Positions 43,098-64,000 of a DNA stretch of 64,000 nt are shown in pieces. The stretch lies in the NCBI GenBank assembly GCA_963744145.1, contig CAVUSO010000001.1, positions 2,752,001 through 2,816,000 on the forward strand, given 5' to 3'. The position numbers were made by a program, and so were the translations under genes. The notes under the pieces were generated by a model. It was not told the origin of the DNA and made no database searches. It saw only the letters and a program-made list of their open reading frames with translations. Position 1 is the first letter of the stretch, and each line of letters opens with the position of its first letter. The stretch comes from an uncultured cyanobacterium (GTDB lineage: Bacteria; Cyanobacteriota; Cyanobacteriia; Cyanobacteriales; CAWUOF01).

Positions 43098-43180
43098 TTA
43101 ACGCAAACCGGAACAAATAAAAGTAGCCCAGTAATAAGGTTGTACAAAGGGATAGGTTTCTTGACCATTTAAAATTTTTG
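43098..43180 (-). pseudogene. Orphan 3'-terminal fragment of a CHAT gene
   Basis: Reads KILNGQETYPFVQPYYWATFICSGLR*, matching the ends of the genes at 50571 and 62861. Confidence 0.8.
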
Positions 43181-43260
43181 GGACATCCCTACAAGATTTA
43201 GGCAATGCAACATTTATGTTATGTTAGAGTAAATCTACAGCAAGCGCATAAACTTCAAAT

Positions 43261-43524
43261 ATGCTGAAGTACCTGACCATCGATGAAGCCCAAGAACAAC
43301 TGCTAGAACTAGCAGAACAGTTGACCAATCAGTGGGCGATCGTTACCAAAAATGAGCTGCCCGTCTTAGCAGTCATCAGCTACGATTTGCTTCTATCTAT
43401 ATTAGAAACTTTAGACATTCTTTCTGATCCTGAGTTTGCTAATCAGTTGCAGGAGAGCATAGCCCAAGCTGAACGAGGAGAAACAATAAGCTGGGAAGAA
43501 GCTAAAATAAAACTGGGACTATGA
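43261..43524 (+). CDS. Phd/YefM-type antitoxin
   Basis: IVTKNELPVLAVIS..ETLDILSDP; overlaps downstream RelE-like gene. Confidence 0.85.
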   Translation: MLKYLTIDEAQEQLLELAEQLTNQWAIVTKNELPVLAVISYDLLLSILETLDILSDPEFANQLQESIAQAERGETISWEEAKIKLGL

Positions 43525-43859
43525 CGACGAACGCACCAAACAATATCGAATACATCATTCAACTGACTCCCATTGCATTAACAATGTTAGCTGATGTAAA
43601 AGACCAGCGCGAATTGAAAGCATTGAGCAACCGTATTGATAAACTTAAGTCTGAACCAGAAAAACAAGGTAAACCTTTAGGAAATAAGCTACAAGGTTAT
43701 CGCAGTGTAAGGGCTGTGGGTCAGCGCTACCGCATTATCTACCGAGTTGAACAAGAAGAAGTAATAGTTTTTGTATTAGGAGTTGGTAGGCGTAAAGAAG
43801 GAGATAGAAATGATATTTATGCAGTAATGGAGCGATTACTAGGAGAAGGAATACAGTAA
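43521..43859 (+). CDS. RelE/ParE family toxin
   Basis: GKPLGNKLQGYRSVRAVGQRYRIIYRV..VGRRK. Confidence 0.88.
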   Translation: MTTNAPNNIEYIIQLTPIALTMLADVKDQRELKALSNRIDKLKSEPEKQGKPLGNKLQGYRSVRAVGQRYRIIYRVEQEEVIVFVLGVGRRKEGDRNDIYAVMERLLGEGIQ

Positions 43860-43924
43860 ATATTTGTCAAAATTTTCTTCCACGCGATCGCCAATTTTAT
43901 CAATGAAATAAATAATTGCATAAA

Positions 43925-44164
43925 TCAGGACGATGATCTATTTCTATACAAATCAATAATGCGCTTAATTACTCGCACTACATTATATAATTCATTCTGT
44001 TGTGGGTTAACAATAGTAAATTTTTTTGATATCGCAAATTTTTCTCCACAAATTTTAAACGGTGGGTCGCAAAATCTCAAGAGTTTTAATAGAGGAGAGT
44101 TGGATTTTTGTTGAGCTTCATTGAGGTTAGTAATGGCTTTGGCGATCGCAATAGTTTGAGACAT
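43925..44164 (-). pseudogene. Internally deleted copy of the gene at 60709-61356
   Basis: Start, middle (FCDPPFKI) and end retained, separated by two deletions. Confidence 0.85.
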
Positions 44165-44277
44165 AATTGTTCAGGGTTTTGTTTTTGAATTTTAGCATCA
44201 AGATATCTCAGGTACAGATTCCGCCAAAACATCATTACCGTTATATGGCAAAATTAGACAAATAATTCCTGGAGAGC

Positions 44278-48539: not shown

Positions 48540-48585
48540 CTAATGCCTCCGGCACGCTACGCGATCGCCTTTTGGTATGGGATTT

Positions 48586-48908: not shown

Positions 48909-49352
48909 CTACAAAATCGTCAAATAAGTTTCGGTTGGACTGATGGGTAAGGGTTTTAAAGTTTGATTCTTCAAGTCTATTTCTAACCCCAAAGATTCCA
49001 AAGGAATTACTCCTAAAAGAGCATCTCTCCCTCCTGGTAACTCTAAACACTCAAAGGTTCCTTCCCGTTCAAACATTGATATGGTAGCATCTCGAAAGAT
49101 TCGGGCTTTACCAATACCCATTGCTGTAGCTACGTCCACTTCTTTAAGGAGTTTCAGTCCCAGCTTGGCGATCGCATCTGATGGTAAACACAAGGTTGTT
49201 GCTCCTGTATCTACTAAGATATTTTTGAGTGTGATTGAGCGAATTTGTTCTTGGGAAATTGTCCCATCTTCAGCTCTAATTTGGTCGGCTCGATTAATAA
49301 TTGTCAGCGTGGCAAAAACTTTTCCCATTTCTTGTTTACTTTGAATTGACAT
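48909..49352 (-). CDS. Clan AA (retropepsin-like) aspartyl protease, copy 1
   Basis: LVDTGAT catalytic motif, ALLGVIPLE; GGAGG RBS. Confidence 0.85.
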   Translation of the reverse strand: MSIQSKQEMGKVFATLTIINRADQIRAEDGTISQEQIRSITLKNILVDTGATTLCLPSDAIAKLGLKLLKEVDVATAMGIGKARIFRDATISMFEREGTFECLELPGGRDALLGVIPLESLGLEIDLKNQTLKPLPISPTETYLTIL

Positions 49353-49419
49353 TGGTTACCTCCTCCTTAAGAGTTGGAGTTTTATCTACTTTTATTATAA
49401 CTTCGCGGTGGTTATAAAT

Positions 49420-49640
49420 ATGATCGAGGCGATGAGAAGACAGTTCTTTTCAGGTAGATGAAGTCCAAACAACTACCCCTTGACTTTTTTATTTAATTGA
49501 CGTAGTATATCATCATGGGGATCTGTATCGCCAAATAATATCAGTTTTGGCAGGGCAGATTATACCAATTCCAGTTAAACTTCAAGGAACAAACAAGGAT
49601 AACTATCAATCATTGAAAATGTATGATTGGCGTTCAACAT
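49420..49640 (+). repeat. Promoter-bearing repeat X, copy 1
   Basis: Homologous to 59961-60175 and 62427-62645; TTGACT(49480)-N17-TAGTAT(49503). Confidence 0.8.
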
Positions 49641-49703
49641 GATCAAGTTACAATTTCAACCACCGAAAGATATAATTTCAGCTAGTTAGCGAGAGACAAT
49701 ATT

Positions 49704-49907
49704 ATGAACATTCGTCAAGAGTTTCTGAATGCGATCGCCGAACTTTCCGATGACAAATTAAAGCTACTATTAGATATAACACTTTCGTGGAAAAGTGAGA
49801 AAAAATTGTCTCCGCAGATACCTGGATCTCAAGCTTATCAAGATTGGCTAAGTGCGGAAAATGACATTTATGACGAACTATTTGCTGATGAACTTACAAA
49901 AAGGTGA
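49704..49907 (+). CDS. Putative antitoxin
   Basis: 67 aa with acidic tail WLSAENDIYDELF, overlapping a PemK-like gene. Confidence 0.7.
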   Translation: MNIRQEFLNAIAELSDDKLKLLLDITLSWKSEKKLSPQIPGSQAYQDWLSAENDIYDELFADELTKR

Positions 49908-50253
49908 TCTGGTTTTGGCTCAAGTGCCAATGCCTTCTACTCAATTAACACAATTTAAACGCCGTCCGGCTGTGATTGTTTCAGCAAACTATCTCAACGA
50001 AATTCTTGACGATGTGATGGTTGTACCTTGTACTTCTCAAACTAATCGGACTTTAACTAGAACGCAATATTTAATTACCGGAGATGAAATTGCTGCTTGT
50101 GGAATCAGAGTAGAATCTGTGGTAAGATGCGAGTCAATTTTAACACTAAATAAGCCTATGATTCTTAGGAAACTGGGTCGGCTTTCAGAGTCAGCAATAA
50201 ATCAAATAGATAGTTATTTATTGATTGCTTTAGAATTAGCAAGAATTGATTAA
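49888..50253 (+). CDS. PemK/MazF family toxin
   Basis: KGDLVL..KRRPAVIVS..VVPCTS..SVVRCE..LGRL; start could be 49870. Confidence 0.88.
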   Translation: MNLQKGDLVLAQVPMPSTQLTQFKRRPAVIVSANYLNEILDDVMVVPCTSQTNRTLTRTQYLITGDEIAACGIRVESVVRCESILTLNKPMILRKLGRLSESAINQIDSYLLIALELARID

Positions 50254-50436
50254 TATATGAACAAAAATTCCAAGATATTTTAATGTTAATTTTTCTCATT
50301 TCATATTAACGCAAACCAGAACAGACGAGTGAAAGCAAAAACTATGGCGATCGCCACATTAGCAAAATCAAAACCACTCTAAGAACCAGTCCATTAATCG
50401 CGATCGACCACCATCAACATAACATAAATATCGATT

Positions 50437-50507
50437 GTAGGGGCGAAGCATTCCGGCAGATCAATTAAAGGTTAAAACCAGCAAATTATGACCGGAATGC
50501 TTCGCCC
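50437..50507. repeat. REP-like hairpin downstream of the CHAT gene (identical copy 62727-62797)
   Basis: GTAGGGGCGAAGCATTCCGG...CCGGAATGCTTCGCCC. Confidence 0.8.
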
Positions 50508-50570
50508 TTCTTCTCTGGCTTCCTCATGATTCCCCCTCAATAATTCAGAAATCATTATTTTTGTCAGATA

Positions 50571-53500
50571 TTAACGCAAACCAGAACAGATAAAAGCAGC
50601 CCAATAAAAAGGTTCGGCAAAGGGAAATTCTTGGCGGCATAAAAATTTCAGGTTTTCGGTTATTTTGTAAACCTTTTCGCCGATCTTATTCCACTCTTTA
50701 TATTCTTCATCCCATTGTTGATACTCTGGTGTTCCTTTAACTAATTTTTTGCGATTTTTATCAGCATTCTTGAGCTTTTCTGCTACTTGTTGCCGTTGCT
50801 TTTGTAAATAAGTTTCAAGTTCAGATTTGTACTCAGTATCTAGAGTTGTTCCTGGTAGGGTGCGAAGTTTGATTTGCGCTTGTTGGAGTGCTTCAGGACG
50901 ATTTAAACCTTGTTGGCGATACTGATAATAAAAGATGGAAAATAAGGCAGTAGCTAAATCATTGACTGCCCACAATGTACTAACTACACTCCGCGCACCA
51001 GCACATAAAAAGCCAGTGGCAATAGTTAAAATATCATCTGTTATTGAGGGAATCCCTAAATTTGTCTCGCAACAAGAAAGAAAAACATCAGAAAGATCAG
51101 GTAATTTCCACCCTGGTGTAAGAAGTTGTCCTAATGTAATACTACCATCACCCAGTATTAATTTAGATTCTAAAGGATTATCTAAACGAGATGTAGCATG
51201 ATGGCTCAAATGCAAAACTTGGACTTCCTTGGCAAGTTGGCGAAAGTTATGGATAGTAGCTCTCTTTCTACCTTTTAGGCGCTGATGGTCAGGAATATTA
51301 TAGATTTTTGCAATTTTTTCCCCTTCAAACAATGCACATTGAAGCGTATCATCAGCATCTTCTACAGTACCATAATTAATTTTAGCAAGTGGTGGACGTT
51401 GTTGGCAATATTGCAAAATTTGACAACTAGGAATATAACGCAAGTAGAAGCAATCAGCTAAATATTCAGTTAAGTATTGAGTCGGGAAAGTTAAAGGTAA
51501 AGCGGCAAATGGTATTTGATGCCAAAATAGGTGCGGAATGATAATCAGTTCTTCAATGTCACTGAGATAATTTTTCACTAGGGTTGTTAGCTGTAGTTTT
51601 TCAGCTAATTGCTGCAAAAGCTCAGAGATTTTTTTATACCAAATTCCATCTCTTGCCTTGTTTAAATAAGGAATTAGCCATTGGTCAACGACTAACTCGC
51701 GTAAAGTTTGATAGCCAAATCCTATACAAGTGTGCAGTTGTGGTGATTTGTCTTTGTAGATGATGAAAATGTGGGTGTCTTCGTCAGTAGTGAAGAAATT
51801 AAGAATAGCAGTATGAGGTTGGTCTATAAGTTGCTGAATGGTAGCAAAATCTAACGGTTCTACTTGAATACCTCCAGATAAAACCGGGTCTAAACGACGG
51901 ATTTGTTCCCAGATTTGTTGTTTTTGTGCTTCCAAGCTTTCGATGTTTACGGTAACAGTTTCTATTACAGCGCGAGTGAGAATTAAACTACCTTTATTTG
52001 TTTGCTCATTTCTAGATTCAGAGTCACTTTGGAAACGTTTCCGTTCAGTATCAATTTGTGCTTGTAGCTCATCGTATTGTTGCAAATATTCCTGAATTTG
52101 GAAAGGAATTTCGCCATCTGAGTAGAGATCATTACTTGCTATTAAATCGACCAGACGTTTAGAACGAGATCGCTCTACATATTCTATGGCTTTGTCAAGA
52201 TTGCTGATATTGATGTAGGATTGAATTATCTTTTCGTAAACATCAATTGAGTCGGCTAAAATCTGTTGACGACTAGTATCAGTAGTTGACCAACTGCGGC
52301 TGATTTCGACAGCAATAATAGCCTGTTCGTATCCCTCAATAGCAATATCCCACCAACCTTCTGTGAATGCCAGATTGCCGAGATTTATACCAGATGTCAG
52401 ACAACCTAGAGGTAGAGTCGTGGGAGTGCGAAATTCTAAGGCTAATTGGAAACAACGAATCGCCGCATCGATATTCTCCGCCCGGTTGCCCGTGATTTTG
52501 GACCTGTAGGCAGTTCCCAGATTATTTTGAGTCATCGCCCATTGTTCGGGGAAATCGGCCCAGGTATAGATAGCTAAAGCCAGTTGATAAGCAGCGATCG
52601 CCGCATCAAGATTCTCAGCTCGGTTGCCCGTGATTTTGTCAGAGTAGGCAGTTCCCAGATTATTTTGAATCATGGCCCATTGTTCGGGGAAATCGGCCCG
52701 GGTATAGACAGCTAAAGCCAGTTGAAAAGCAGCGATCGCGGCATCAATATTTTCCCCCCGGTTGCCCGTGATTTTGTCCCTGTAGGCAGTTCCCAGATTA
52801 TTTTGAGTCATGGCCCAGTCTTCGGGAAAATCGGCCCGGGTATAGACAGCTAAAGCCAGTTGATAAGCAGCGATCGCCGCATCAATATTCTCCGCCCGGT
52901 TGCCCGTAATTTTTTCCCTGTAGGCATTTCCCAGATTATTTTGAGTCATGGCCCAGTCTTCGGGAAAATCGGCCCGGGTATAGACAGCTAAAGCCAGTTG
53001 AAAAGCAGCGATCGCCGCATCAATATTCTCCGCCCGGTTGCCCGTAATTTTTTCCCTGTAGGCATTTCCCAGATTATTTTGAGTCATCGCCCATTGTTCG
53101 GGGAAATCGGCCCGGGTATAGACAGCTAAAGCCAGTTGATAAGCAGTGATCGCCACATCAATATTCTCAGCTCGGCTCCCCGTGATTTTGTTAGAGTAGG
53201 CATTTCCCAGATTATTTTGAGTCAGGGCCGATTGTTCGGGGAAATCAGCCCGGGTTCTGACAGCTAAAGCCAGGTGATAAGCAGCGATCGCCGCATCAAT
53301 ATTCTCCGCCCGGTTCCCCGTGATTTTGAACCAGTAGGCAGCTCCCAGATTATTTTGAGTCATGGCCCAGTCTTCGGGAAAATCGGCCCGGGTATAGACA
53401 GCTAAAGCCAGTTGATAAGCAGCGATCGCCGCATCAATATTTTCCGCCCGGTTCCCCGTGATTTTGTCCCTGTAGGCATTTCCCAGATTATTTTGAGTCA

Positions 53501-54914
53501 TGGCCCAGTCTTCGGGAAAATCGGCCCGGGTATAGACAGCTAAAGCCAGTTGATAAGCAGTGATCGCCGCATCAATATTCTCAGCTCGGCTCCCCGTGAT
53601 TTTGTTAGAGTAGGCATTTCCCAGATTATTTTGAGTCATCGCCCATTGTTCGGGGAAATCGGCACGGGTTCTGACAGCTAAAGCCAGTTGATAAGCAGTG
53701 ATCGCCGCATCAATATTCTCAGCTCGGTTCCCCGTGATTTTGTTAGAGTAGGCATTTCCCAGATTATTTTGAGTCATCGCCCAGTCTTCAGGGAAATCGG
53801 CACGGGTTCTGACAGCTAAAGCCAGGTGATAAGCAGCGATCGCGGCATCAATATTCTCAGCTCGGTTCCCCGTGATTTTGTCAGAGTAGGCAGTTCCCAG
53901 ATTATTTTGAGTCATTGCCCAGTCTTCAGGGAAATCGGCATGGGTGTAGACAGCTAAAGCCAGTTGATAAGCAGCGATCGCGGCATCAATATTCTCCGCC
54001 CGGTTCCCCGTGATTTTGCCCCTGTAGGCAGTTCCCAGATTATTTTGAGTCATGGCCCAGTCTTCAGGGAAATCGTCACGAGTATAGACAGCTAAAGCCA
54101 GTTGATAAGCAGCGATCGCTTTTTCTAAATTCTCTGCTCTATTTCCTCTTAGTCTATCGCTATAAGTATTGCCAAGACTGTTTTGCAAACCTGCCCATTG
54201 TTCTGGAAAATTTTCACGATTGTATATATTTAAAGCAAGGTTATAGGAAACAATGGCATTTTCTAAATTCTCGCCTCTTTCGCGCATTATCTTACTATTA
54301 TAAGCCCTACCTAAATTTATTTGACAATTAGCCCACTCCATCGGGTAAGATTGTTGATTAAAAATAATCATTGCTGTTTTATATGATGCGATCGCAATCT
54401 CTAAATTATTAGCTTTAATCCCGAGCGGAAACTGTTGAATTAAATTTCCAAAATAACACAGTATTGATGCTAAAAATTCTGCTTCATCGGATCTTATTTC
54501 AGTTAAAGTAGAACTACCCCATGTTTGTAGAACTACCTCAAATTGAGCATTAAGCTTATCTATATTCGACACTAAAATTGGATAAACAACTTGTGGATCT
54601 CCATTACTATGAGAGACAGTTTGTAAAACCTGTAGTAAAAAAGTTAAATTATCTTCACTTAAACTATCTTCTGACTTAGTAGCTAATGGTTTTTCCAGTA
54701 AATCCGATATTTCATTGGCAAGCCTTTGCAAAAAGCTTGCTGAATTTTTATCTCCATTTTCTGTTAATTTTTCTGCTACTTGTACTAGAATTTGAACTAA
54801 TTTAACATCAATGAGTTCTTGGTGAGCATTCAAAAGCCCTGCTTCTTCTCCGCTTGGACAACTTAGCAGTGCATTGACCAGATTAAGATAAGCATTTAGA
54901 TTCTGCTCATCCAT
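50571..54914 (-). CDS. TPR-CHAT (caspase-like) protease with 12 near-identical 46-aa repeats
   Basis: WAMTQNNLGxAYxxKITG repeats, ERSRSKRL, IIIPH, HLSHHA and LSCCET dyad, VSTLWAV, YWAAFICSG. Confidence 0.92.
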   Translation of the reverse strand: MDEQNLNAYLNLVNALLSCPSGEEAGLLNAHQELIDVKLVQILVQVAEKLTENGDKNSASFLQRLANEISDLLEKPLATKSEDSLSEDNLTFLLQVLQTVSHSNGDPQVVYPILVSNIDKLNAQFEVVLQTWGSSTLTEIRSDEAEFLASILCYFGNLIQQFPLGIKANNLEIAIASYKTAMIIFNQQSYPMEWANCQINLGRAYNSKIMRERGENLENAIVSYNLALNIYNRENFPEQWAGLQNSLGNTYSDRLRGNRAENLEKAIAAYQLALAVYTRDDFPEDWAMTQNNLGTAYRGKITGNRAENIDAAIAAYQLALAVYTHADFPEDWAMTQNNLGTAYSDKITGNRAENIDAAIAAYHLALAVRTRADFPEDWAMTQNNLGNAYSNKITGNRAENIDAAITAYQLALAVRTRADFPEQWAMTQNNLGNAYSNKITGSRAENIDAAITAYQLALAVYTRADFPEDWAMTQNNLGNAYRDKITGNRAENIDAAIAAYQLALAVYTRADFPEDWAMTQNNLGAAYWFKITGNRAENIDAAIAAYHLALAVRTRADFPEQSALTQNNLGNAYSNKITGSRAENIDVAITAYQLALAVYTRADFPEQWAMTQNNLGNAYREKITGNRAENIDAAIAAFQLALAVYTRADFPEDWAMTQNNLGNAYREKITGNRAENIDAAIAAYQLALAVYTRADFPEDWAMTQNNLGTAYRDKITGNRGENIDAAIAAFQLALAVYTRADFPEQWAMIQNNLGTAYSDKITGNRAENLDAAIAAYQLALAIYTWADFPEQWAMTQNNLGTAYRSKITGNRAENIDAAIRCFQLALEFRTPTTLPLGCLTSGINLGNLAFTEGWWDIAIEGYEQAIIAVEISRSWSTTDTSRQQILADSIDVYEKIIQSYINISNLDKAIEYVERSRSKRLVDLIASNDLYSDGEIPFQIQEYLQQYDELQAQIDTERKRFQSDSESRNEQTNKGSLILTRAVIETVTVNIESLEAQKQQIWEQIRRLDPVLSGGIQVEPLDFATIQQLIDQPHTAILNFFTTDEDTHIFIIYKDKSPQLHTCIGFGYQTLRELVVDQWLIPYLNKARDGIWYKKISELLQQLAEKLQLTTLVKNYLSDIEELIIIPHLFWHQIPFAALPLTFPTQYLTEYLADCFYLRYIPSCQILQYCQQRPPLAKINYGTVEDADDTLQCALFEGEKIAKIYNIPDHQRLKGRKRATIHNFRQLAKEVQVLHLSHHATSRLDNPLESKLILGDGSITLGQLLTPGWKLPDLSDVFLSCCETNLGIPSITDDILTIATGFLCAGARSVVSTLWAVNDLATALFSIFYYQYRQQGLNRPEALQQAQIKLRTLPGTTLDTEYKSELETYLQKQRQQVAEKLKNADKNRKKLVKGTPEYQQWDEEYKEWNKIGEKVYKITENLKFLCRQEFPFAEPFYWAAFICSGLR
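52460..54120 (-). repeat. Intragenic tandem repeat, 12 x 138 bp
   Basis: CCAGATTATTTTGA recurs at 138-nt spacing (52517, 52655, 52793, ...). Confidence 0.9.
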
Positions 54915-54957
54915 TGTTTTTGATGCTCACTTATGCTATTAACAAAATTTGACTTCC

Positions 54958-55764
54958 TTAACTTATATCCCAAAAGTTCCAAAGAATGATCGCAATTAAG
55001 AAAAACTGTAACCAGTACAATTTTACCTTAGCTACTAGATTTTTGTTTTTGATACCTCGATTAAAAAAAGAACTAACAGTGCCAACTTTTACCACCAATT
55101 TTTCTGATATTTCAGCCCAAGTATATCCATCTAACCACAACAGAGTTATTTTCTGTAAAGTAATATCCTGACGTTTTTTCATCGGCTTCCCAAAAATATT
55201 CTCAGGATTCTCCACAACTATTTCTCTGAGTTTTTCTACAAAATCAGGCTCATTTTGCTCGTAAGTCAATTGGTCTAAGTAAGTGATTTCTGATTCTTCA
55301 GCATCCCCCGATTTACCGTTGCTAATTGGTTTGTCGGCTGAAACTAGGATATCTGTAATTGGTTTCCCATTCTCAGTTCTCTTATGAATACCACGATGAT
55401 CATTACAGGCATCGATATTTTTTTTAGACTGAATAAACCTCGCCCAGTTTAAAATATCTCCCTTTTCAGGATCAAATTGCTTCCGCCGAATAATTTGGAC
55501 AACTGCCAAGTCGGTTTCTTGCTTAGTGTCCTCCGAAATTTGACGGTACTCACTGGTCGATAATCCAGATGGATGCTTTGGCTTTGAAAGCTGTCCAGTT
55601 TGTCTGAATTCTGAAAGCAGTTGAGTCAAAGCCCGCTCTCCCTCGAAACTTTTAGGTTCATGTCTTTGGGCATCCAGGGCTAGCCTATTAAAGTAGTCGT
55701 TCTGTCCAGCTTCAGTGGACTTTTCATTTGGCTCAGGAGATGACTGCTTGTCCTTGTCAACCAT
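54958..55764 (-). CDS. Cyanobacterial sigma-70-like protein
   Basis: LALDAQRH..ALTQL, FDPEKG..W, C-terminal HTH-like DGYTWAEISEKL..TVSSFF. Confidence 0.65.
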   Translation of the reverse strand: MVDKDKQSSPEPNEKSTEAGQNDYFNRLALDAQRHEPKSFEGERALTQLLSEFRQTGQLSKPKHPSGLSTSEYRQISEDTKQETDLAVVQIIRRKQFDPEKGDILNWARFIQSKKNIDACNDHRGIHKRTENGKPITDILVSADKPISNGKSGDAEESEITYLDQLTYEQNEPDFVEKLREIVVENPENIFGKPMKKRQDITLQKITLLWLDGYTWAEISEKLVVKVGTVSSFFNRGIKNKNLVAKVKLYWLQFFLIAIILWNFWDIS

Positions 55765-56159
55765 AAATAAACACTCCGTTAAGAGTATAAGTTTATATAA
55801 ATCACTGAGAAGATATCAACTTCCTAAAGACCCCTCGGTTTTCCGTAGAAAAGCTAAACGGGTTTTGATGGGAGAAGTAACCAGACGTTCTAAGTTAGAG
55901 TGGTGGGGCACTCTAAGCGAAACTGTAACGGTCTGGTTGGTTATTTATCTAGAAATATTGCTAAAGTTCTGCAAGTGCCTGAATTTTTTTTGAAATTCAA
56001 CAATTCGATCAGAGTCAAAATAGCTGGAATTGTTATCCTATAACGTTTTGAGATATCTTAAACCTGATTGGGAGTTTCTTTTCTTAAGCACATTGAACCA
56101 TTTGGACTCCTTTTTAGCAAGGTTTAGTGATTTTTCTCAAATGTCTTTGCTTGATAATT

Positions 56160-58649
56160 TTAAACTCTTCCTCTTTCTCTCTCCCTATCTCTCTGAGCAA
56201 TCTGGATTTGCATCCGATTATATAAATCAACTTGAGGATCGGAATGGCTAACGCAAGCAACTAAGGCATAACGTTGTATTTCGATATCATCTGGCTTGGC
56301 CCATTTACGATTACAACTCACAACCAGGATCATATTTCCTTTATCATAGTTTGTAGACCTAGATGAAATTTCTACTTGCCCTCTTTGGATTGTTCCTTTC
56401 TTACGAATACTTGAGCCTGGAGACAATTTAACTTCAATACCCGCTTTATATTTTTTCTTTAACTTTTGTTTTGTATTATCTGTGGACTCATCAGGAGAAC
56501 TTGTTTTGCTAGTAGTTTCATAAGCCTTCCTAACAATTTCACGATCGATTCCTTTAAACAGATCGAATTCCATTGTGACTCCTAGATATGAGTCTCCGCG
56601 AGTTGGGCGAGTTGGCGGATCAAATGCCAAGGTAATTGATAATATACGAGTGCCTTTTATTGTAAAAAATTCCGGTGGCAACTGGGGGATTTCGTAAATA
56701 TGAAAATATCCTACTTTGATGGAAATATTATCTTCTGATAGCACAACGTAGTTTTCAGCAGAATACATGGCACGTTCTAAGTTAGCTTGCCCATATCCAT
56801 AGATTTTTAACTGGTTTTTAATTTGTTTATTTGGAGATTTCTTACCTTTACATTGAAATTCGGGCGGAATTTCTTGAGGAAGAGCCGCAGAGTTGACAAT
56901 AAGTGCCCGAATGAGGTTAGAACTAGCATCTGGATATTTGGTAAAAAGTTGAGCAGCAATGTTAGCCACACGAGGAGCTGCAAAGCTTGTACCACTACAA
57001 ATATCGAATAATGAATTGGAGTAATCTTTGGATAAAGTTAAAATAGAGACACCTGCTATATTATCTGAAAGTATATTAGTTTTAGGTAACCCTAAATTTT
57101 CTCGATAACTAAGATCCAATGCTAAATCTCCACCAAAATCTACAACATCGGGCTTAATCATTCCATCAACTCCAAAACCAGTTCTAGTAAAGGGAGATGG
57201 GTATCCTGGTAGTTTGGCGATCGCTTGACGACGAACATCAGAAGGTTCTGTAATACTACCACGACCAAGTGATAAAGAACCTACGGTTAATGCAATTGCT
57301 GAAGTTGCTGGATCGATGATTTGGGCGCTCGGATTCAGCAGATAATTTGGATAATCAGTTCGTAGTTGCTCATTTGATTGTACCTCTTCATGAAAAGCAT
57401 TTCCCGCTGAAATCACAAAAACAATATTTTTATGTTTGTAGTTATAAGCAATTTCATCTATTTTTGCAGCTAGGCGAAACTGCTTCAGTCCATCTCGATA
57501 AATTTGGTCAGCATTACCTAGGGAGATATTGATGATTTTACAATTAGGATACTGTTCAACAAAAGCACGAATAGCTCGATCCAGTTGATTTTCTACAAGC
57601 AGATCCTCATCATATTTATTATCCTCGTTTGTTACACGGGCAGAAAATAGCCAAGCTGTGGGATCGAATGAACGCTGTTTTATGCAATTTTCAACATCTC
57701 CATAGATAGCAATTCCAGCCACATTAGTACCATGTCCGTTTACATCGTCAGGACCGCCTTGGATGATTTCCTGTGTTGGATCTGGGAATACTTCAGCTTC
57801 ACCCAAGACTGGAGCAATCAACGGATGACCACGTTGTACACCAGAATCAATAACAAGAATGCCGCAATTATCTTCAGGTGGGGGAATAATTTCTGGAAAA
57901 TCAGAAATTGGTAGATTATAATCAGCATTTCTTTCAAATGCAGGTTGGGGAGGGCGATCTATTTCTTTAACAATTTCTTCTTGCAGCAAAAGCTCTAAAA
58001 CTTCCTGGGTGACTTTAATTCTAGCAATACACAGATATTCACCTATGTAGCGATCGCTCATTTTCATGGAAGCAGTATCATTTGATAAACTTTCTAGCAC
58101 TTCAGCAATATCATCTAAATATTTTTTCATTTCTCGGCGATCGCCTGTGTGCCAAAGTTCCAAATCTAAGGCAGCAACTTCATCTGCTTGTACAGGCTTT
58201 AAGCGTAACAACTGACCAATCCGATCTTCAGGTTCGAGAGGAACTAGCATCTCAATTGCCCCTAATTGTTCGTATTTAGGACCTGGTTTAATCTGACTGT
58301 AATTTTCTAACCGCTTCCTGAATTCTGTTAGTTCAATGTCCGATGAAAATACCACAATGACTTTATCAGGTTCATGCGCTAGAACATTTAGTTCTATTTG
58401 ATTTACCAAGTTATCTGAAAAAGAATCTTTTTCAGCAATTTTTAGCTTGAAAATCAATTTTGGGTCAAGACGGAAAAGACTAGACTTTTTCTTATTTTCC
58501 TCAACCAAGACAGATATTTGATCTAATAAATGTTTCCCATGTTGAGCTACATCAGGACGGTTTTTACCACCAAAACCTGAAGGCGATCGTCGCTGTGATT
58601 CAATCTCTATTACTCTCGGTAATTTCAAGTGATCAAACTTATTTACCAT
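56160..58649 (-). CDS. S8 family serine peptidase (IetS-like)
   Basis: VIDSG, HGTNVAG, NISLG, VISAGN, GTSFAAP; follows an AAA ATPase. Confidence 0.9.
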   Translation of the reverse strand: MVNKFDHLKLPRVIEIESQRRSPSGFGGKNRPDVAQHGKHLLDQISVLVEENKKKSSLFRLDPKLIFKLKIAEKDSFSDNLVNQIELNVLAHEPDKVIVVFSSDIELTEFRKRLENYSQIKPGPKYEQLGAIEMLVPLEPEDRIGQLLRLKPVQADEVAALDLELWHTGDRREMKKYLDDIAEVLESLSNDTASMKMSDRYIGEYLCIARIKVTQEVLELLLQEEIVKEIDRPPQPAFERNADYNLPISDFPEIIPPPEDNCGILVIDSGVQRGHPLIAPVLGEAEVFPDPTQEIIQGGPDDVNGHGTNVAGIAIYGDVENCIKQRSFDPTAWLFSARVTNEDNKYDEDLLVENQLDRAIRAFVEQYPNCKIINISLGNADQIYRDGLKQFRLAAKIDEIAYNYKHKNIVFVISAGNAFHEEVQSNEQLRTDYPNYLLNPSAQIIDPATSAIALTVGSLSLGRGSITEPSDVRRQAIAKLPGYPSPFTRTGFGVDGMIKPDVVDFGGDLALDLSYRENLGLPKTNILSDNIAGVSILTLSKDYSNSLFDICSGTSFAAPRVANIAAQLFTKYPDASSNLIRALIVNSAALPQEIPPEFQCKGKKSPNKQIKNQLKIYGYGQANLERAMYSAENYVVLSEDNISIKVGYFHIYEIPQLPPEFFTIKGTRILSITLAFDPPTRPTRGDSYLGVTMEFDLFKGIDREIVRKAYETTSKTSSPDESTDNTKQKLKKKYKAGIEVKLSPGSSIRKKGTIQRGQVEISSRSTNYDKGNMILVVSCNRKWAKPDDIEIQRYALVACVSHSDPQVDLYNRMQIQIAQRDRERERGRV

Positions 58650-58667
58650 TATGTTCAACGTAGATGA

Positions 58668-59678
58668 TCATTTTGACTTTGCTATGATACTTTGTCTTTC
58701 TAAAAAACGGGCGATCGCTACCTCTAAATCATCAGCAGCCAAAGTCCGTTCACCTCGCAGGATCACAGCTTTAATTGCATCAGAGCAGATTCTCTCTAGA
58801 TCTGCTCCAGTAGCATTTTCCAGCCGAGCAGCAAATATAGATAAATCAATACCACTATAGCGGATAGCTGATAAATAACGACTCAAAATAGTCGTCCGTA
58901 GTTCAAATGACGGGTGATCAAAGAAAATCACTTCATCAAATCTTCGCCAAACTGCACTGTCCAATAGTTGCTCATGATTAGTAGTCGCAATGAATACACT
59001 TTGATTATTGGTATTATCGATCAACTGTAACAAACTATTCACTAGGCGCTTTACTTCACCGTGTTCATTTAAGTTATCTCGCTCGCGGGCTATAGCATCA
59101 AACTCATCAAACAAAACCAGCCATTCACCTTTTTCAATGTAGGTAAAAATTTTCTGAAGATTCGTTGCAGTTTGACCCAAGTAAGAAGAGAATACTGCTG
59201 TTAGGTTCACATAAACCAGGGGAAGTCCCAAATAACTAGAAAGGATTTTTGCTGTTTGAGTTTTTCCACATCCAGGTGGACCGCAGAAAAGCAATTTGTT
59301 TTTGGGTTTCAGATTATATGCTGCAATGATATCTTGTTTACGGTTTTCTAGGACAATTTCTTGGAGGACATCAAAAATTTTTTCATTCAGCACAATCCGA
59401 TCCCAAGTCAGATCAAATCGTTTCACATCAAGCAAAGTAAGTCCAGTATCCTTGTCTTTAGGAGGATCAGGAAATTGGTTCAGGGGATTGGAGTTAGTAG
59501 CTAGCGGTTTTGTAGATACATTTCCATTATGAAGCAACTTTTCTAAATCTCTAGCAAGTAAGACATGATTTTTATTTCTTTCTTCTTCAATTATTTCCAT
59601 AGCGGCAGCCAAAAACTCTTCTCTATCGTTATGAGAGAAGCTTTTGAAGAGTTTTCTAAGGATTTCACCACGCGCCAT
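58668..59678 (-). CDS. AAA+ ATPase (IetA-like)
   Basis: GPPGCGKT, SSYLGQT, FDEFDAI, GEVKRLVNSLLQ, LDSAVWRRF. Confidence 0.9.
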   Translation of the reverse strand: MARGEILRKLFKSFSHNDREEFLAAAMEIIEEERNKNHVLLARDLEKLLHNGNVSTKPLATNSNPLNQFPDPPKDKDTGLTLLDVKRFDLTWDRIVLNEKIFDVLQEIVLENRKQDIIAAYNLKPKNKLLFCGPPGCGKTQTAKILSSYLGLPLVYVNLTAVFSSYLGQTATNLQKIFTYIEKGEWLVLFDEFDAIARERDNLNEHGEVKRLVNSLLQLIDNTNNQSVFIATTNHEQLLDSAVWRRFDEVIFFDHPSFELRTTILSRYLSAIRYSGIDLSIFAARLENATGADLERICSDAIKAVILRGERTLAADDLEVAIARFLERQSIIAKSK

Positions 59679-59838
59679 ATTTATAATTGGATTTAACTAT
59701 TCAGCAGACTTAATTCATTATACTGTATTTTTCCTAAATAGTCAAATATACTGATTTATTTTACAGCGCAAATATCCTATTAATATTCATAATATAGCAT
59801 TAGTAAATATCAATTTATCGATCTATATTCTGTTGATA

Positions 59839-59883
59839 TTAACGCCAACCAGAATAGATGAATGTAGTCCAATAGAAAGGTTA
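59839..59883 (-). pseudogene. Degenerate orphan 3' end of a CHAT gene
   Basis: Reads PFYWTTFIYSGWR*. Confidence 0.7.
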
Positions 59884-59960
59884 TGTAAATGAGTTGTTTT
59901 GTAGATGCGATCGCTTTTTTCTCACCCTATTTATATGCTGCATCCCAAACTTGACCAACG

Positions 59961-60175
59961 GCGATCGCGGTGATGAGAAGAGAGCTGTTTTCAGGTAGAT
60001 TAAGTCCAAAACCCCCTTGACTTTTTTGGTGAATTGACATACCATATAATCATGGGAATCTGTGCAGCCCAATAATATCGGTTTTGACCAGGTAAATTAT
60101 ATCCATTCCAGCTAAACTTCGAGCAACAAACAAGGATAAATATCAATTATTGAAAACGGGTAATTGGCGATCAAC
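59961..60175 (+). repeat. Promoter-bearing repeat X, copy 2
   Basis: Starts at HIP1; TTGACT(60017)-N17-TACCAT(60040). Confidence 0.8.
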
Positions 60176-60203
60176 ATTAGTAATAAAACTACTGGGATAA
60201 ATC

Positions 60204-60473
60204 ATGGAAACTTTACTATTAGCAATTATAATTATATTGCAGATTGTGTTAATTGTTCTAATTATAAACCGTGATTACCACCTTTTACCAGAAAGTTTAG
60301 GTATTCCAGGGGACTCTCAAATTTCACAAGCAACAACCCAGAAACCAAGGGAAAGTCCAAAGAATTTATGGGATAACCCACTACCAGCATCAGCAGAGTT
60401 AAAGTTGACCGTTGCCGAATTTAAGAATAGTTATGATCGGAGTGAATCGTGGGATGGAGATTTTGTAGCCTGA
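60204..60473 (+). CDS. Small hypothetical protein with N-terminal TM helix
   Basis: 89 aa; overlaps the start of a GNAT-like remnant. Confidence 0.55.
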   Translation: METLLLAIIIILQIVLIVLIINRDYHLLPESLGIPGDSQISQATTQKPRESPKNLWDNPLPASAELKLTVAEFKNSYDRSESWDGDFVA

Positions 60474-60540
60474 AAAATTCTCCTACTCTACAAAGAGAAG
60501 AGTTTGACTGTGGGGATGAAGAAATTAATCACTATGAGAA
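60449..60540 (+). pseudogene. N-terminal remnant of a GNAT-type toxin/acetyltransferase
   Basis: QREEFDCGDEEINHY resembles the RxxFDCGxxxLNxY start of GNAT toxins; the rest of the listed ORF is read-through into repeats. Confidence 0.55.
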
Positions 60541-60597
60541 TTATCAATTTAGTGAAAGCAAAAACTCTGGCGATCGCCAAATTTATCAAGGAAATAA

Positions 60598-60687
60598 GGC
60601 GTTGCTTAATCAGGGTATGAAAATCAATCGGGGCGTATGCCATACGCCCCTACAAATTATTTATTCATACCGTAAATCAGCAACGCC
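60598..60687. mobile_element. 90-bp MITE carrying a REP-like hairpin
   Basis: GGCGTTGCT...AGCAACGCC ends; flanks GGAAATAA/GGCAATAA; empty sites visible at ~37480 and ~43903. Confidence 0.8.
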
Positions 60688-60708
60688 GGCAATAAATAAT
60701 TGCATAAA

Positions 60709-61356
60709 TCAGGACGATGATCTATTTCTATCCAAATCAATAAGGCGCTTAATTACTCGCACTACATCATATAATTCATTCTGTTGTGGGTTAACAATAG
60801 TAAATTTTTTTGATATTGCATACAGACCTAATTGCCGATCAAGCTTGACAAATATATAATCTTCACCATTCATTATCATCCCCAAAATAGGCATCTCCGG
60901 GTGTGGATTTGCCATCATATAAGCTAAAGTTTGGGGTAATGCTTGTAAAACACTAAAGCTATATTGTTTAGCTTCTATTAATACAACCCACAATAAGTTT
61001 TTGATCACCAATGTATCAATAAATCCTTCTAATATAGTGTCCCCATTTTCAATCTCTATTTTGACAAATTTTTCTCCACGAATTTTAAACGGTGGGTCGC
61101 AAAATCCCAAGAGTTCTAATAGAGGAGATAGGATAATAATGTTAACTGTGGCTTCAAGAATAAAACCATCGGCTGCATAATAGAGGTAGCGATTTTTGAG
61201 GCGATCGAGGGAGTTTTTTTCTGTCTCGGTGAGTTCAGGTAAATCATTTAGCCATTCGGTGAAGAATTGAGGCTCATTTGTTTGAGTAATGTTGAATTTT
61301 TGTTGAGCTTCATTGAGGTTAGTAATAGCTTTGGTGATGGCAATAGTTTGAGACAT
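60709..61356 (-). CDS. Type I restriction endonuclease R N-terminal-like (PD-(D/E)XK) standalone protein
   Basis: EATVNIIILSPLL, LEGFIDTLV, VLIEAK, ALPQTLAYM, MNGEDYIF. Confidence 0.75.
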   Translation of the reverse strand: MSQTIAITKAITNLNEAQQKFNITQTNEPQFFTEWLNDLPELTETEKNSLDRLKNRYLYYAADGFILEATVNIIILSPLLELLGFCDPPFKIRGEKFVKIEIENGDTILEGFIDTLVIKNLLWVVLIEAKQYSFSVLQALPQTLAYMMANPHPEMPILGMIMNGEDYIFVKLDRQLGLYAISKKFTIVNPQQNELYDVVRVIKRLIDLDRNRSSS

Positions 61357-61442
61357 AATTGTTCAGGATTTTGTTTGGGAATTTTAGCGTCAAGATATTT
61401 CAGCTATATTTTAAGCTGCTTCAAATAGAGACTTTCCGAAAG

Positions 61443-61697
61443 CTAACCACCAGTTAATCCCAGTCTAGCTCGTACTTCCGCTGCTGAAATGGTTTTTGTT
61501 TGTTGTCCGCGATCGCCCAGAAACGCCATCAATTCTTGATTCTGACGAGTTAGTTCAATTTCTTGATCAAAGTTATTAATCTCGGCTAGAATAAACTCTA
61601 AACCATCCTCTGTTTGCAGAATTAGGTTTTGTTGTCTAGCTTCTATCAGGAGCGCAATCAGGGCTGTTGAGTCAAGTGGTACATTAATAATCTTCAT
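61443..61697 (-). CDS. Small antitoxin-like protein
   Basis: 84 aa ending ISAAEVRARLGL; start overlaps the stop of an upstream remnant. Confidence 0.6.
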   Translation of the reverse strand: MKIINVPLDSTALIALLIEARQQNLILQTEDGLEFILAEINNFDQEIELTRQNQELMAFLGDRGQQTKTISAAEVRARLGLTGG

Positions 61698-61765
61698 AAT
61701 TCAAATTCTTTCCCCCGGATATAAAGTTTGTTGTGTTTCTTAAAACCTACAACTTCAATCTTGTC
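61694..61765 (-). pseudogene. C-terminal remnant of a RelE-like toxin
   Basis: Reads IEVVGFKKHNKLYIRGKEFEL*, with TGA overlapping the next ATG. Confidence 0.45.
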
Positions 61766-61915
61766 TTTGTTTGATAGTTTTAAGTATGGCATCAGGCTAA
61801 AAAGTACGATCGCTGCTCTGATCTCACTATTGATATTCTTCATCCTCAATTTTATCAACTGCGATCGCGAAACCCTTTAATGAAATAATCAAGGGAATAA
61901 AAATGATCAATCTCA

Positions 61916-62359
61916 CTACAAAATCGTCAAATAAGTTTCGGTTGGACTGATGGGTAAGGGTTTTAAAGTTTGATTCTTCAAGTCTATTTCTAACCCCAAA
62001 GATTCCAAAGGAATTACTCCTAAAAGAGCATCTCTCCCTCCTGGTAACTCTAAACACTCAAAGGTTCCTTCCCGCTCAAACATTGAGATTTTGGCATCTT
62101 GGAAAATTCGGGCTTTACCAATACCCATTGCTGTAGCTACGTCCACTTCTTTAAGGAGTTTCAGTCCCAGCTTGGCGATCGCATCTGCTGGTAAACACAA
62201 GGTTGTTGCTCCTGTATCTACTAAGACATTTTTGAGTGTGATTGAGCGAATTTGTTCTTGGGAAATTGTCCCATCTTCAGCTCTAATTTGGTCGGCTCGA
62301 TTAATAATTGTCAGCGTGGCAAAAACTTTTCCCATTTCTTGTTTACTTTGAATTGGCAT
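61916..62359 (-). CDS. Clan AA aspartyl protease, copy 2
   Basis: VLVDTGAT; differs from copy 1 at about five residues. Confidence 0.85.
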   Translation of the reverse strand: MPIQSKQEMGKVFATLTIINRADQIRAEDGTISQEQIRSITLKNVLVDTGATTLCLPADAIAKLGLKLLKEVDVATAMGIGKARIFQDAKISMFEREGTFECLELPGGRDALLGVIPLESLGLEIDLKNQTLKPLPISPTETYLTIL

Positions 62360-62426
62360 TGGTTACCTCCTCCTTAAGAGTTGGAGTTTTGTCTACTTTT
62401 ATTATAACTTCGCAACGGTTAGAAAT

Positions 62427-62645
62427 GCGATCGCGGCGATGAGAAGACAGCTCTTTTCGGGTAGGTGAAGTCCAAAAAAACACCCCTTGACTTTTTTGTT
62501 TAATTGACATACTATATCATCATGGGAATCTGTGTCGCCCAATAATATCGGTTTTGGCAAGGTAAATTATACCAATTCCAGCTAAACTTCGAGCAACAAA
62601 CAAGGGTAAATATCAATTATTGAAAACAGGTGATTGGCGATCGCC
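62427..62645 (+). repeat. Promoter-bearing repeat X, copy 3 (empty slot)
   Basis: HIP1 at both ends; TTGACT(62487)-N17-TACTAT(62510). Confidence 0.8.
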
Positions 62646-62860: not shown

Positions 62861-64000
62861 TTAACGCAAACCAGAACAGATAAAAGCAGCCCAATAAAAA
62901 GGTGAGGCAAAGGGAAATTCTTGGCGGCATAAAATTTTCAGGTTTTGGGTTATTTGGTAAACCTTTTCGCCGATCTTATTCCACTCTTTATATTCTTCAT
63001 CCCATTGTTGATACTCAGGTGTTCCTTTAACTAATCTTTTGCGATTTTGATCAGCATTCTTGAGCTTTTCTGCTACTTGTTGCCGTTGCTTTTGTAAATA
63101 AGTTTCGAGTTCAGATTTGTACTCAGTATCTAGAGTTGTTCCTGGTAGGGTGCGAAGTTTGATTTGCGCTTGTTGGAGTGCTTCAGGACGATTTAAACCT
63201 TGTTGGCGATACTGATAATAAAAGATGGAAAATAAGGCAGTAGCTAAATCATCGACTGACCACAAGGTACTGACCACACTTCGCGCTCCAGCACATAAAA
63301 AGCCAGTTGATAATGATAAAATATCATCAGTAATCTGAGCTAAAGCGAGGTGCGTTTCGCAACAGGAAAGAAACAGATCAGAGAGATGAGGAAGTCGAAA
63401 ACCGGGGGTCATTATTTGACCTAAAGTAATATTACCATCGGCAAGTATGAGCCGGGATTCTAAGGGACTATCCAATCGTGATGAAGCGTGATGGCTCGAA
63501 TGTAATACTTGCACTTGTTTAGCCAGTTGGCGATAATTGCTCACGGTAGCTTGACTGCGACCTTTTAAGCGTTGATTTTCTGGAATCTGGTATAAATTAG
63601 CGATTTTTTCGCATTCAAATTCTACACTGGGTAATGTGCCATCGGGGTTTTCTACTAGACCATAATTAATTTTAGAAAGTTGGGGACGTTGTTGGCAATA
63701 TTGCAATATTTGACTACTGGGAACATAGCGAATGCGGAATTGATCACCTAAGTGTGGGGTTGAGATTATTTCACTTTCTCTGTGCAGAGAGTTACTTTGA
63801 ATGGGCAGAGTTAAAGGTAAGGCAGCGAAAGGAATTTGATGCCAAAATAGGTGCGGAATGATCATCAATTCCTCAATGTCACTTAGATAAGTTTTCACTA
63901 AGGTGGTGAGTTGCAGTTTTTCCGCTAATTGCTCCAAAAATTCCGAGATTTTTTCATACCAAGTTCTGTCTTTTTTCCTATTCTGGTAGGAAGTTAGCCA
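62861..64000 (-). CDS. Second CHAT-domain protease (partial, continues beyond window)
   Basis: HSSHHA, LSCCET, YWAAFICSGLR; frame open to the window edge. Confidence 0.9.
   Translation of the reverse strand, partial: WLTSYQNRKKDRTWYEKISEFLEQLAEKLQLTTLVKTYLSDIEELMIIPHLFWHQIPFAALPLTLPIQSNSLHRESEIISTPHLGDQFRIRYVPSSQILQYCQQRPQLSKINYGLVENPDGTLPSVEFECEKIANLYQIPENQRLKGRSQATVSNYRQLAKQVQVLHSSHHASSRLDSPLESRLILADGNITLGQIMTPGFRLPHLSDLFLSCCETHLALAQITDDILSLSTGFLCAGARSVVSTLWSVDDLATALFSIFYYQYRQQGLNRPEALQQAQIKLRTLPGTTLDTEYKSELETYLQKQRQQVAEKLKNADQNRKRLVKGTPEYQQWDEEYKEWNKIGEKVYQITQNLKILCRQEFPFASPFYWAAFICSGLR

Follow-up and report, generated by a model that had tools for sequence, protein, structure and literature searches.

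Toxin-antitoxin genes are typical cargo of chromosomal integrons, and the minimal mobile elements of Neisseria are cassettes lying between conserved flanks, which are exchanged by homologous recombination after transformation. In the present work, we analyzed a stretch of 64,000 nucleotides (hereafter the window) from an uncultured cyanobacterium (assembly GCA_963744145.1, contig CAVUSO010000001.1, positions 2,752,001 to 2,816,000 of the forward strand). In this stretch, a non-coding element, X, occurs three times within a cluster of duplicated modules, ahead of a toxin-antitoxin operon, of another small gene pair, or of no cargo. A previous examination of the letters alone (the sequence-only reading) had proposed that X is a fixed promoter expressing swappable cargo, exchanged at sites resembling HIP1 (highly iterated palindrome 1; GCGATCGC, in this cluster often TGGCGATCGCCA), with an integron-like logic.

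HIP1 has been linked to rearrangements in other cyanobacteria. In Synechococcus PCC 6301, a 352-bp smtB deletion corresponds to the excision of a HIP1-flanked segment (Gupta 1993). Illegitimate recombination and excision at HIP1 (Robinson 1997) as well as recombination of a plasmid in PCC 7002 (Akiyama 1998) have also been described, all three studies being cited in PMC13756078, PMC5861425, and PMC4390886. In Nostocaceae, the repeat SDR5 inserts inside HIP1, between its third and fourth bases (Elhai et al. 2008, as cited in PMC5861425 and PMC4390886). Natural HIP1-bounded rearrangements are few in these papers, which mention the selected deletion, the plasmid recombination and the SDR5 insertion. 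The role of HIP1 is a long-standing question, and the present locus is a compact natural case, with several module boundaries and flank swaps at HIP1.

HIP1 at the joints between modules

In this locus, illegitimate recombination over short homologies, taking place at HIP1, has probably broken up and rejoined duplicated modules on repeated occasions, and X would be the promoter and leader of one of the gene pairs, ORF89-GNAT. The three copies of X are located at 49420-49640 (X1), 59961-60175 (X2), and 62427-62645 (X3) on the + strand, as found both by reading the DNA and with a repeat finder. The three-copy, non-coding element of about 210 bp announced by the sequence-only reading is thereby recovered, with a length of about 215 bp. 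X1 is followed by a MazEF operon and X2, the left edge of which is the HIP1 at 59961, by ORF89-GNAT. X3, the 'empty' form, fuses through TTGGCGATCGCC straight into a block situated downstream of a CHAT gene. The copies end in TTGGCGTTCAACAT (X1), TTGGCGATCAACAT (X2), and TGATTGGCGATCGCCACATTAGC (X3).

Comparison of the filled and empty forms defines the joint of cargo 1. Where X3 reads TTGGCGATCGCCACA, X1 reads TTGGCGTTC followed by AACAT, the cargo, and then ACTATGGCGATC followed by GCCACA, rejoining the common sequence at 50345. On reading the DNA, the junction strings of the three copies and the rejoining position are as previously proposed. Removal from the filled form of what lies between two TGGCGATC repeats gives X3: the filled form carries TTGGCGTTC...ATGGCGATCGCC and X3 carries TTGGCGATCGCC. 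The two filled slots have 14 nt in common at their left ends and 33 nt at their right ends. The right-hand sequence, R, which had been described as a 30-mer closing both filled slots, is a 33-mer, 94% alike between 50328-50360 (R1) and 60551-60583 (R2). It ends in the 12-nt palindrome TGGCGATCGCCA, with HIP1 at 50347 in R1 and at 60570 in R2, and R1 is terminator-like on the − strand. R is found only twice in the 7.7-Mb genome, and a 23-base pattern taken from inside it has no exact match in a metagenome collection.

Direct repeats also bound the aspartic-protease unit. In copy 1, the gene of a retropepsin-like aspartic protease (48909..49352, − strand) and its promoter lie between HIP1 48854 and a degenerate HIP1 at 49422. 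In copy 3, the corresponding gene (61916..62359, − strand) lies between HIP1 61861 and HIP1 62427. Module 2 lacks this unit, and the missing part is exactly what the GCGATCGCG sites at 61861 and 62427 enclose in copy 3; module 2 has the single site at 59961. The sequence to the left of X2 (59906-59969) matches 48798-48862. In one genome of the same family (G001), homology to the protease unit ends at 49403 and no X is found beside the protease gene.

A duplication exceeding 5 kb (48780-54200 against 61787-65900, window coordinates) contains copies 1 and 3. Between 48830 and about 49400, these two copies are 98-100% alike in 10 of 12 fifty-column bins, the two remaining bins being at 86% and 96%. 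They are 98.7% identical over 50345-50570, but only 82-90% inside X, with steps of identity at the edges of X. The history of X differs from that of its flanks. Because of this difference (82-90% against mostly 98-100%), X is better viewed as one of the shuffled pieces, and the fixed platform carrying swappable cargo imagined by the sequence-only reading is not supported.

Flank swaps are observed with a further module. Module 4 (43097..44180) comprises a CHAT 3′ remnant (43097-43152), a Phd/YefM gene (43261-43524), a ParE/YhaV-like gene (43521-43859), HIP1 43884, and the right flank of module 2. The sequence to the right of HIP1 43884 and the right flank of module 2, starting at HIP1 60570, match each other save for one hairpin-repeat insertion; to the left of these two HIP1 sites, modules 4 and 2 are unrelated. 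The right flank made of the block and the CHAT gene has either X1..R or X3 as its left partner, and the right flank containing a 215-aa gene has either X2..R or Phd/ParE. In both cases, homology starts at HIP1.

HIP1 is frequent in this genome, with 7852 copies (1 per 981 bp), 76 of which are in the window; for 1.7% of positions taken at random, the nearest copy is no more than 8 bp away. In the cluster, 4-5 of about 9 joints, counted by eye, are at HIP1, as compared with the ~1.7% expected. At the scale of the genome, the ends of self-BLAST homologies lie within 8 bp of HIP1 in 5.0% of 2256 cases, in 5.2% of the 847 low-copy cases, and again in 5.0% once the window is left out; multi-copy repeats give a similar figure. 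The genome-wide enrichment of HIP1 at homology ends (~3-fold) is real but modest, and the locus is an extreme case of it. One part of the proposed HIP1-bounded exchangeable slot stands: whether cargo is there or not, the difference is delimited by HIP1 or half-HIP1 repeats, and HIP1 is found at the joints far beyond chance. The integron-like logic attached to it is not supported.

Element X, its start-site box and its gene partners

The TTGACT-N17-TA(G/C)(T/C)AT arrangement pointing rightward was rightly recognized. On the + strand, X1, X2, and X3 have TAGTAT, TACCAT, and TACTAT as their respective −10 hexamers, and each copy scores 9/12 in a promoter scan. In X1, the −35 hexamer is at 49480-49485 and the −10 at 49503-49508, and a transcription start site (TSS) box begins at 49515, followed by an AT-rich leader. 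Within the −10, the T, the A and the final T are invariant, and the two middle positions vary, as does the spacer. Since the scan yields 61 promoter-like sites against 43.9 ± 6.7 in shuffled sequences, the hexamer match alone would be weak evidence. According to whole-genome BLAST, identity is 87% for X1-X3, 89% for X2-X3, and 82% for X1-X2. The possibility that X is a decayed coding sequence, which had been raised together with the original proposal, was ruled out: each copy has at least two stops in every one of the six frames. The 44 variable sites, out of 212, are split 15/16/13 by codon position. An assignment of X as the promoter of the aspartic protease was also discarded, on the grounds that the G001 homology to the protease unit stops before X and that X2 has no adjoining protease gene.

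The leader, of about 150 nt, is unstructured. Rfam gave no match at E ≤ 1, either across 48500-64000 or for the box at 9 further loci; the fold of the X2 leader is no better than those of shuffles (z +1.26); and compensatory changes were found in 0 of 20 predicted pairs. X-level DNA matched 1 of 60 other genomes, in the core region only, and the conserved end of the leader had 0 matches in a metagenome scan. A search of a plasmid collection gave no match. Altogether, X would be a sigma-70-type promoter followed by the ~150-nt leader of the conserved two-gene module ORF89-GNAT, its promoter activity being predicted from sequence features.

The core of X has about 65 nt and consists of the promoter-like sequence plus the first ~25 predicted transcribed bases. 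In the window, the corresponding promoter with its start-site box is at 49480-49535 (X1), 60017-60072 (X2), and 62487-62542 (X3), on the + strand. Two more copies of the core are found in the same genome, and a degenerate one at 37745-37775 of the window. The two additional loci, L004 and L005 (C1, 1.95 Mb and 6.35 Mb), are near-identical, with a DUF1156/methyltransferase-like gene divergent from the core. At L004, the core is followed by a 50-aa open reading frame (ORF) and, ~730 nt further, by a PrlF/YhaV pair; at L005, the small ORF is interrupted.

The layout of the promoter with its box is CCCCTTGAC, N17, TAYNAT, N6, and ATGGGAATCYGTG..GCC, often followed by ATATATA. An 18-base pattern located just past the −10 has matches in cyanobacteria, among them Microcoleus, Phormidium, Anabaena, Cuspidothrix, and metagenome-assembled genomes of Oscillatoriales, together with many chance matches elsewhere. 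In the cyanobacterial matches, a −35/−10 pair occurs at a constant upstream distance. A slightly looser pattern of the box, run on 401 genomes sampled from the order, gave 59 places distributed over 35 genomes (1-4 copies per genome), the reversed control giving 0. A −35/−10 pair with a spacing of 17 ± 1 nt is present in 26 of 30 further box instances. This conservation of the core and the constant −35/−10 spacing imply that X is not a neutral spacer, and the X core would best be described as a promoter followed by a start-site box, both of them conserved. A literature search for the box sequence returned only unrelated matches.

Depending on the place, the box is followed by ORF89-GNAT, MazEF, a PrlF/YhaV pair, Uma2 endonuclease genes, a phosphofructokinase gene, or no ORF. 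In many Microcoleus species, the core has a single syntenic location next to purF, and tandem copies also occur in this genus. A conserved promoter-like core does precede different genes, in this genome and in others. The view of X as a general platform is not supported, since only the association of X with ORF89-GNAT recurs in another lineage. The window also contains five Uma2-family endonuclease genes within 15 kb (13505-17704 and 27453-28172), four of them in a row, and the Microcoleus box is found upstream of Uma2 genes as well. On visual inspection, a TGGCGG-type arm located 10-25 nt downstream may, in some families, pair with the second half of the box. A leaderless mini-ORF (MGIC..) starting at the box was considered as a conserved peptide but not accepted, its length ranging from 7 to 58 codons among instances.

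The J-Box of SigJ promoters, given as GGGaAtacT by Gonzalez et al. 2019 (PMC6495340), resembles the box of X only in the GGGAAT with which the latter opens after the −10. However, the near-invariant final T of the J-Box is a G in the box of X. Moreover, the latter lies downstream of a complete −35/−10 pair and does not replace it. The identification of the box with a SigJ J-Box was not adopted on these two grounds.

The cargo behind X1 is composed of a putative MazE-type antitoxin gene (49704..49907, + strand, 67 aa, no family match) and of a MazF/PemK toxin gene (49888..50253, + strand, 121 aa from the ATG), which overlap by 20 nt. The presence of MazF had been predicted, and its product matches PF02452 (PemK) with an E-value of 1.1e-16 (61 bits, for a cut-off of 23). 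With a PemK-fold toxin gene placed after a small overlapping antitoxin-like ORF, the pair has the organization of a type II MazEF system. It possesses its own promoter-like site, GTTACA-N18-TATAAT, scoring 10/12, at 49647-49676. DNA homologues of MazEF (70-85% identity) are present in 27 of the 401 genomes, including this one, and the alignments to the homologous loci begin at 49667-49703, past X and the junction. In another genus (G397, locus L149), an intact MazE and a broken MazF are convergent with, and adjoin, the 3′ end of the orthologous CHAT gene (..PYYWAGFICSGLR and a stop), with no X upstream of MazEF. Because L149 has MazEF beside CHAT without X, the MazEF-CHAT neighbourhood would predate its union with X. 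It would be simpler to regard the 'empty' copy 3 as a loss than copy 1 as a gain. The idea that a fixed promoter expresses this cargo is not supported, MazEF having its own promoter-like site and adjoining the CHAT 3′ end without X in another genus.

Behind X2, ORF89 (60204..60473, + strand) encodes a small protein with an N-terminal hydrophobic helix and a conserved C-terminal part (..NLWDNPPPA.EELKLTVAEFK.KYDRSEPWDGDFVA). Its family is conserved, with 14 homologous clusters at 60-75% identity and a presence in 12 of the 401 genomes, including this one, but it matches no described family. In 7 of 9 other full-length loci, ORF89 is followed by an overlapping GNAT-like gene, either intact, split or fused. 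The intact product has 170-182 aa and starts with VGWRFCSLK..LQREEFDCGDEEIN.YLK. One full-length homologue reaches the cut-off of PF13508 (28.0 bits for L133, the cut-off being 27), and another remains below it (18.8 bits for L129). In agreement with the GNAT remnant noticed earlier, the window copy is a 5′ stub (60449..~60549, + strand) containing the first ~29 codons and ending with ..EEINHY where the 33-mer starts; a GNAT domain is lacking in this copy.

X2 can be aligned with two Microcoleus loci, L064 and L026, through the −35, the leader and the GGCGATCAACAT string into the start of a METLLL.. ORF. The promoter is 84% identical, the leader 63-66%, and the ORF start 69-71%, after which identity drops to 36-38%. 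In G338, the X core is located 56 nt upstream of an intact ORF89-GNAT pair. X with ORF89-GNAT is the only pairing of X with a cargo that recurs in another lineage. ORF89-GNAT is a conserved, unannotated two-gene module of filamentous cyanobacteria, coding for ORF89, a small protein with a membrane helix, and for a GNAT acetyltransferase. A toxin-antitoxin-like nature of this pair is probable, and it may be of a new kind. DUF1778-type proteins are partners of GNAT toxins. Like such pairs, ORF89-GNAT consists of two overlapping genes, but ORF89 has no family match, carries a membrane helix and does not resemble a DUF1778-type partner.

Competing explanations

In the scenario that we favour, an ancestral unit of the form X-L-cargo-R-HIP1, possibly with both ORF89-GNAT and MazEF beside the CHAT 3′ end, would have been duplicated among CHAT paralogues. 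The cluster brings together TPR-CHAT protease genes, the aspartic-protease unit, and the MazEF, Phd/ParE, and ORF89-GNAT pairs. Recombination between very short HIP1-containing repeats would then have removed or exchanged segments. In copy 1, ORF89-GNAT would have been lost and X1 joined to the self-sufficient MazEF operon, already linked to the CHAT 3′ end. In copy 2, the recurrent cargo would have been kept, with loss of the 3′ part of GNAT and of what followed it. Copy 3 would have arisen by a deletion, its end points being the TGGCGATC that closes X and the one belonging to the HIP1 past the shared 33-mer. The protease unit would have been gained or lost between two GCGATCGCG sites, and right flanks exchanged at TGGCGATCGCCA. 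That the filled forms have the same ends on both sides would reflect their descent from a single longer X...R unit, or of one form from the other, each with its own internal losses. In such a model, no dedicated cassette machinery would be needed. R with its HIP1, as a weak terminator-like site on the − strand, may help to explain its own retention between convergent genes.

Several observations do not fit easily with this scenario. Unrelated cargos share the left junction (TCAACAT) and the right 33-mer, which a replacement of cassettes through shared ends would explain equally well. According to genome BLAST, cargo 1 retains no trace of ORF89-GNAT and cargo 2 no trace of MazEF. Three joints are away from HIP1, past AACAT in cargo 1, between the GNAT stub and R, and between a CHAT fragment and R. 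The locus is an outlier, and the general ~3-fold trend (5% against 1.7%) does not account for it. The 82-90% identity of X between flanks mostly at 98-100% is not explained by a copy 3 that would simply be copy 1 minus its cargo; additional events of gene conversion or replacement are required. In addition, the X core is upstream of ORF89 at only 3 of about 12 loci examined, in the window, in G338, and in Microcoleus L064/L026, where the ORF is frameshifted. At the remaining ORF89 loci, the upstream DNA is unrelated to X. The notion of a native cargo therefore rests on two lineages. Finally, each event could be either an insertion or a deletion, and the directions given above are those that we infer.

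A genuine cassette exchange would account directly for two unrelated cargos having the same left (TCAACAT) and right (33-mer and HIP1) ends. HIP1, or the 12-nt TGGCGATCGCCA, would then be the site-specific target of an enzyme encoded in trans, and the X...R units would be promoter-bearing slots. The recombined pairings of flanks and left partners, with homology from HIP1 onward, would be expected, as would the occurrence of HIP1 at 4-5 of ~9 joints for ~2% expected. Such a mechanism would also be in line with the X core standing ahead of different gene types in many genomes, and with the cited reports of site-specific HIP1 recombination in a Synechococcus PCC 7002 plasmid and of precise SDR5 insertion inside HIP1. 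Nevertheless, we consider it improbable. No recombinase family was hit among the 58 window ORFs scanned, each slot has one cargo and no array, and MazEF combines its own promoter-like site with an old linkage to CHAT without X. Moreover, the 33-mer is present only twice in the genome, its inner 23-base pattern lacks an exact metagenome match, X has a history different from that of its flanks, and three joints are away from HIP1. A mobility of X itself can also be envisaged. The HIP1-X-...-R-HIP1 unit would be a small non-autonomous mobile element with an outward promoter, landing in HIP1 like SDR5 and picking up adjacent genes. In this case, the history of X separate from both flanks and the HIP1 on both sides of copies 2 and 3 would be natural consequences. 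That 35 of 401 genomes carry the core, at 1-4 copies each, and that Microcoleus has tandem copies would also suit a mobile element. The 8-bp direct repeat TGGCGATC of the filled forms would be either a target duplication or the recombining repeat; however, it is simply half of HIP1. No terminal inverted repeats beyond the HIP1 palindrome were seen by eye, and none of at least 25 nt was returned by the repeat finder. Other genomic copies share only the ~65-nt core and not the whole unit, the copy number is very low, and the single syntenic place beside purF in many Microcoleus species is better explained by vertical descent. Mobility of X appears, on balance, hardly probable.

A further possibility is a segmental duplication with no more than one or two random deletions after it; HIP1 would be coincidental and X a spacer carried along. 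This possibility is disfavoured and appears very improbable. The duplication of more than 5 kb containing copies 1 and 3, the 76 HIP1 sites in the window and the commonness of promoter-like hexamers in AT-rich DNA (61 for 44 expected) are in its favour. Yet 4-5 joints are at HIP1 when 1.7% of random positions are within 8 bp of it, and the X core is found in 35 of 401 genomes for 0 in the reversed control, with −35 and −10 at a fixed distance in 26 of 30 instances. The sharp identity steps at the edges of X and the flank shared with module 4 also need more than one duplication and one deletion.

Beyond this locus, it is tempting to imagine that HIP1 sites are real recombination joints, which reshuffle expression modules among paralogous conflict or defence loci, the portable promoter/TSS box marking one class of them. 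We regard this generalization as unlikely. If it were true, HIP1, unexplained for 30 years, would gain a role in modular genome plasticity. The idea is testable by statistics on breakpoints across strains and by PCR for HIP1-closed products. Two by-products were obtained on the way: a promoter with a start-site box in ~9% of the sampled genomes (35/401), ahead of unrelated genes, and a conserved unannotated module of a small membrane protein and GNAT. The clustered HIP1 joints, the promoter/TSS box, and the ORF89-GNAT module are all worth following.

Gene content of the cluster and comparison with known systems

Upstream of copy 1, a DDE transposase in two ORFs (46790-48384, + strand) is the only mobility gene among the 58 window ORFs covered by the family scan. 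Downstream of MazEF, a 23-nt fragment of the CHAT C-terminus (50303..50325, − strand), identical to the last CHAT codons, duplicates 50568-50590 and precedes R1. The block downstream of CHAT (50345..50570) is 98.7% identical to 62635-62860, and its middle 80 nt are a hairpin repeat with hundreds of genome copies. These short hairpin repeats (50433-50514 and 62723-62804) are often found in tandem arrays genome-wide and resemble miniature inverted-repeat transposable elements or short dispersed repeats. The block is followed by the gene of a TPR-CHAT protein of 1447 aa (50571..54914, − strand), a paralogue of the gene starting at 62861. This gene contains 13 tandem repeats of 138 bp (46 codons) at 52298-54253, most copies being 84-89% alike, and the array of its paralogue, past 64000, is shorter.

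Between the two CHAT modules, a − strand run (54958-59678) encodes a protein with weak matches to sigma-70 region 4, all below family cut-offs (54958-55764), an S8 subtilase of 832 aa (56160-58658), and an AAA ATPase of 336 aa (58668-59678). It may be a further protease-based conflict system. Module 2 begins with a CHAT 3′ remnant (59835..59960, − strand; ..PFYWTTFIYSGWR and a stop), ending at HIP1 59961 where X2 starts. To the right of R2, to which the GNAT stub is joined on the left, module 2 has a different hairpin element at 60590-60690, which is missing in module 4. This element is followed by the 215-aa gene (60709..61356, − strand), of which a decayed copy is at 43925-44164. Two small ORFs (61443-61858, − strand) precede the protease unit of copy 3. 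The 3′ part of the second TPR-CHAT gene (62861..64000, − strand) closes the window and runs past it, with homology up to ~65900 in window coordinates. In the cluster, toxin-antitoxin pairs are at CHAT 3′ ends, MazEF at the intact gene, Phd/ParE and ORF89-GNAT (whose toxin-antitoxin nature is putative) at remnants.

As in integrons, a promoter-like element is found upstream of a place with differing gene content, and the reading of an integron without integrase was attractive. It is unsupported and is corrected here. The claim that the window contains no integrase was right: the scan of the 58 window ORFs, which did not extend to the rest of the genome for IntI, revealed no recombinase or integrase family. 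Beyond this, no attC-like structured site was detected, the shared 33-mer containing only the 12-nt HIP1 palindrome, and the repeat finder returned no inverted-repeat pairs of at least 25 nt in 47000-64000. Each X has a single cargo and not an array of cassettes, and for one of these cargos, MazEF, a separate promoter-like site is present. The supposed platform, X, belongs itself to the shuffled pieces. As in the minimal mobile elements of Neisseria, different cargos lie between shared flanks with no element-encoded recombinase. Those elements are, however, defined by comparing strains and have long conserved flanking genes, whereas the shared ends are here of 14 and 33 nt and belong to paralogues within one genome. 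With SDR5, the locus has in common a foreign sequence joined at HIP1; but SDR5 is a short repeat module with many copies, whereas the units considered here measure 0.2-0.9 kb, have 2-3 copies, and bear genes.

With respect to their gene content, the cargos resemble type II toxin-antitoxin operons, the antitoxin-like ORF of cargo 1 overlapping a PemK-domain gene and module 4 having a Phd/ParE-type pair. The cargo would then be made of ordinary type II toxin-antitoxin pairs and of the unannotated ORF89-GNAT pair. The resemblance with the described HIP1-flanked recombination events is threefold: presence or absence is bounded by direct copies of HIP1, one HIP1 remains at the empty site, and no enzyme is encoded by the element. 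These events differ from the present ones in that they concern one deletion selected in the laboratory, whereas several joints, including flank swaps, are found here within a multi-module paralogous cluster. One of the repeat partners is here a half site (TTGGCGATC followed by AACAT), and the events are known from sequence alone. Thus, the locus fails every integron feature tested and fits HIP1-mediated illegitimate recombination, extended to a multi-module mosaic.

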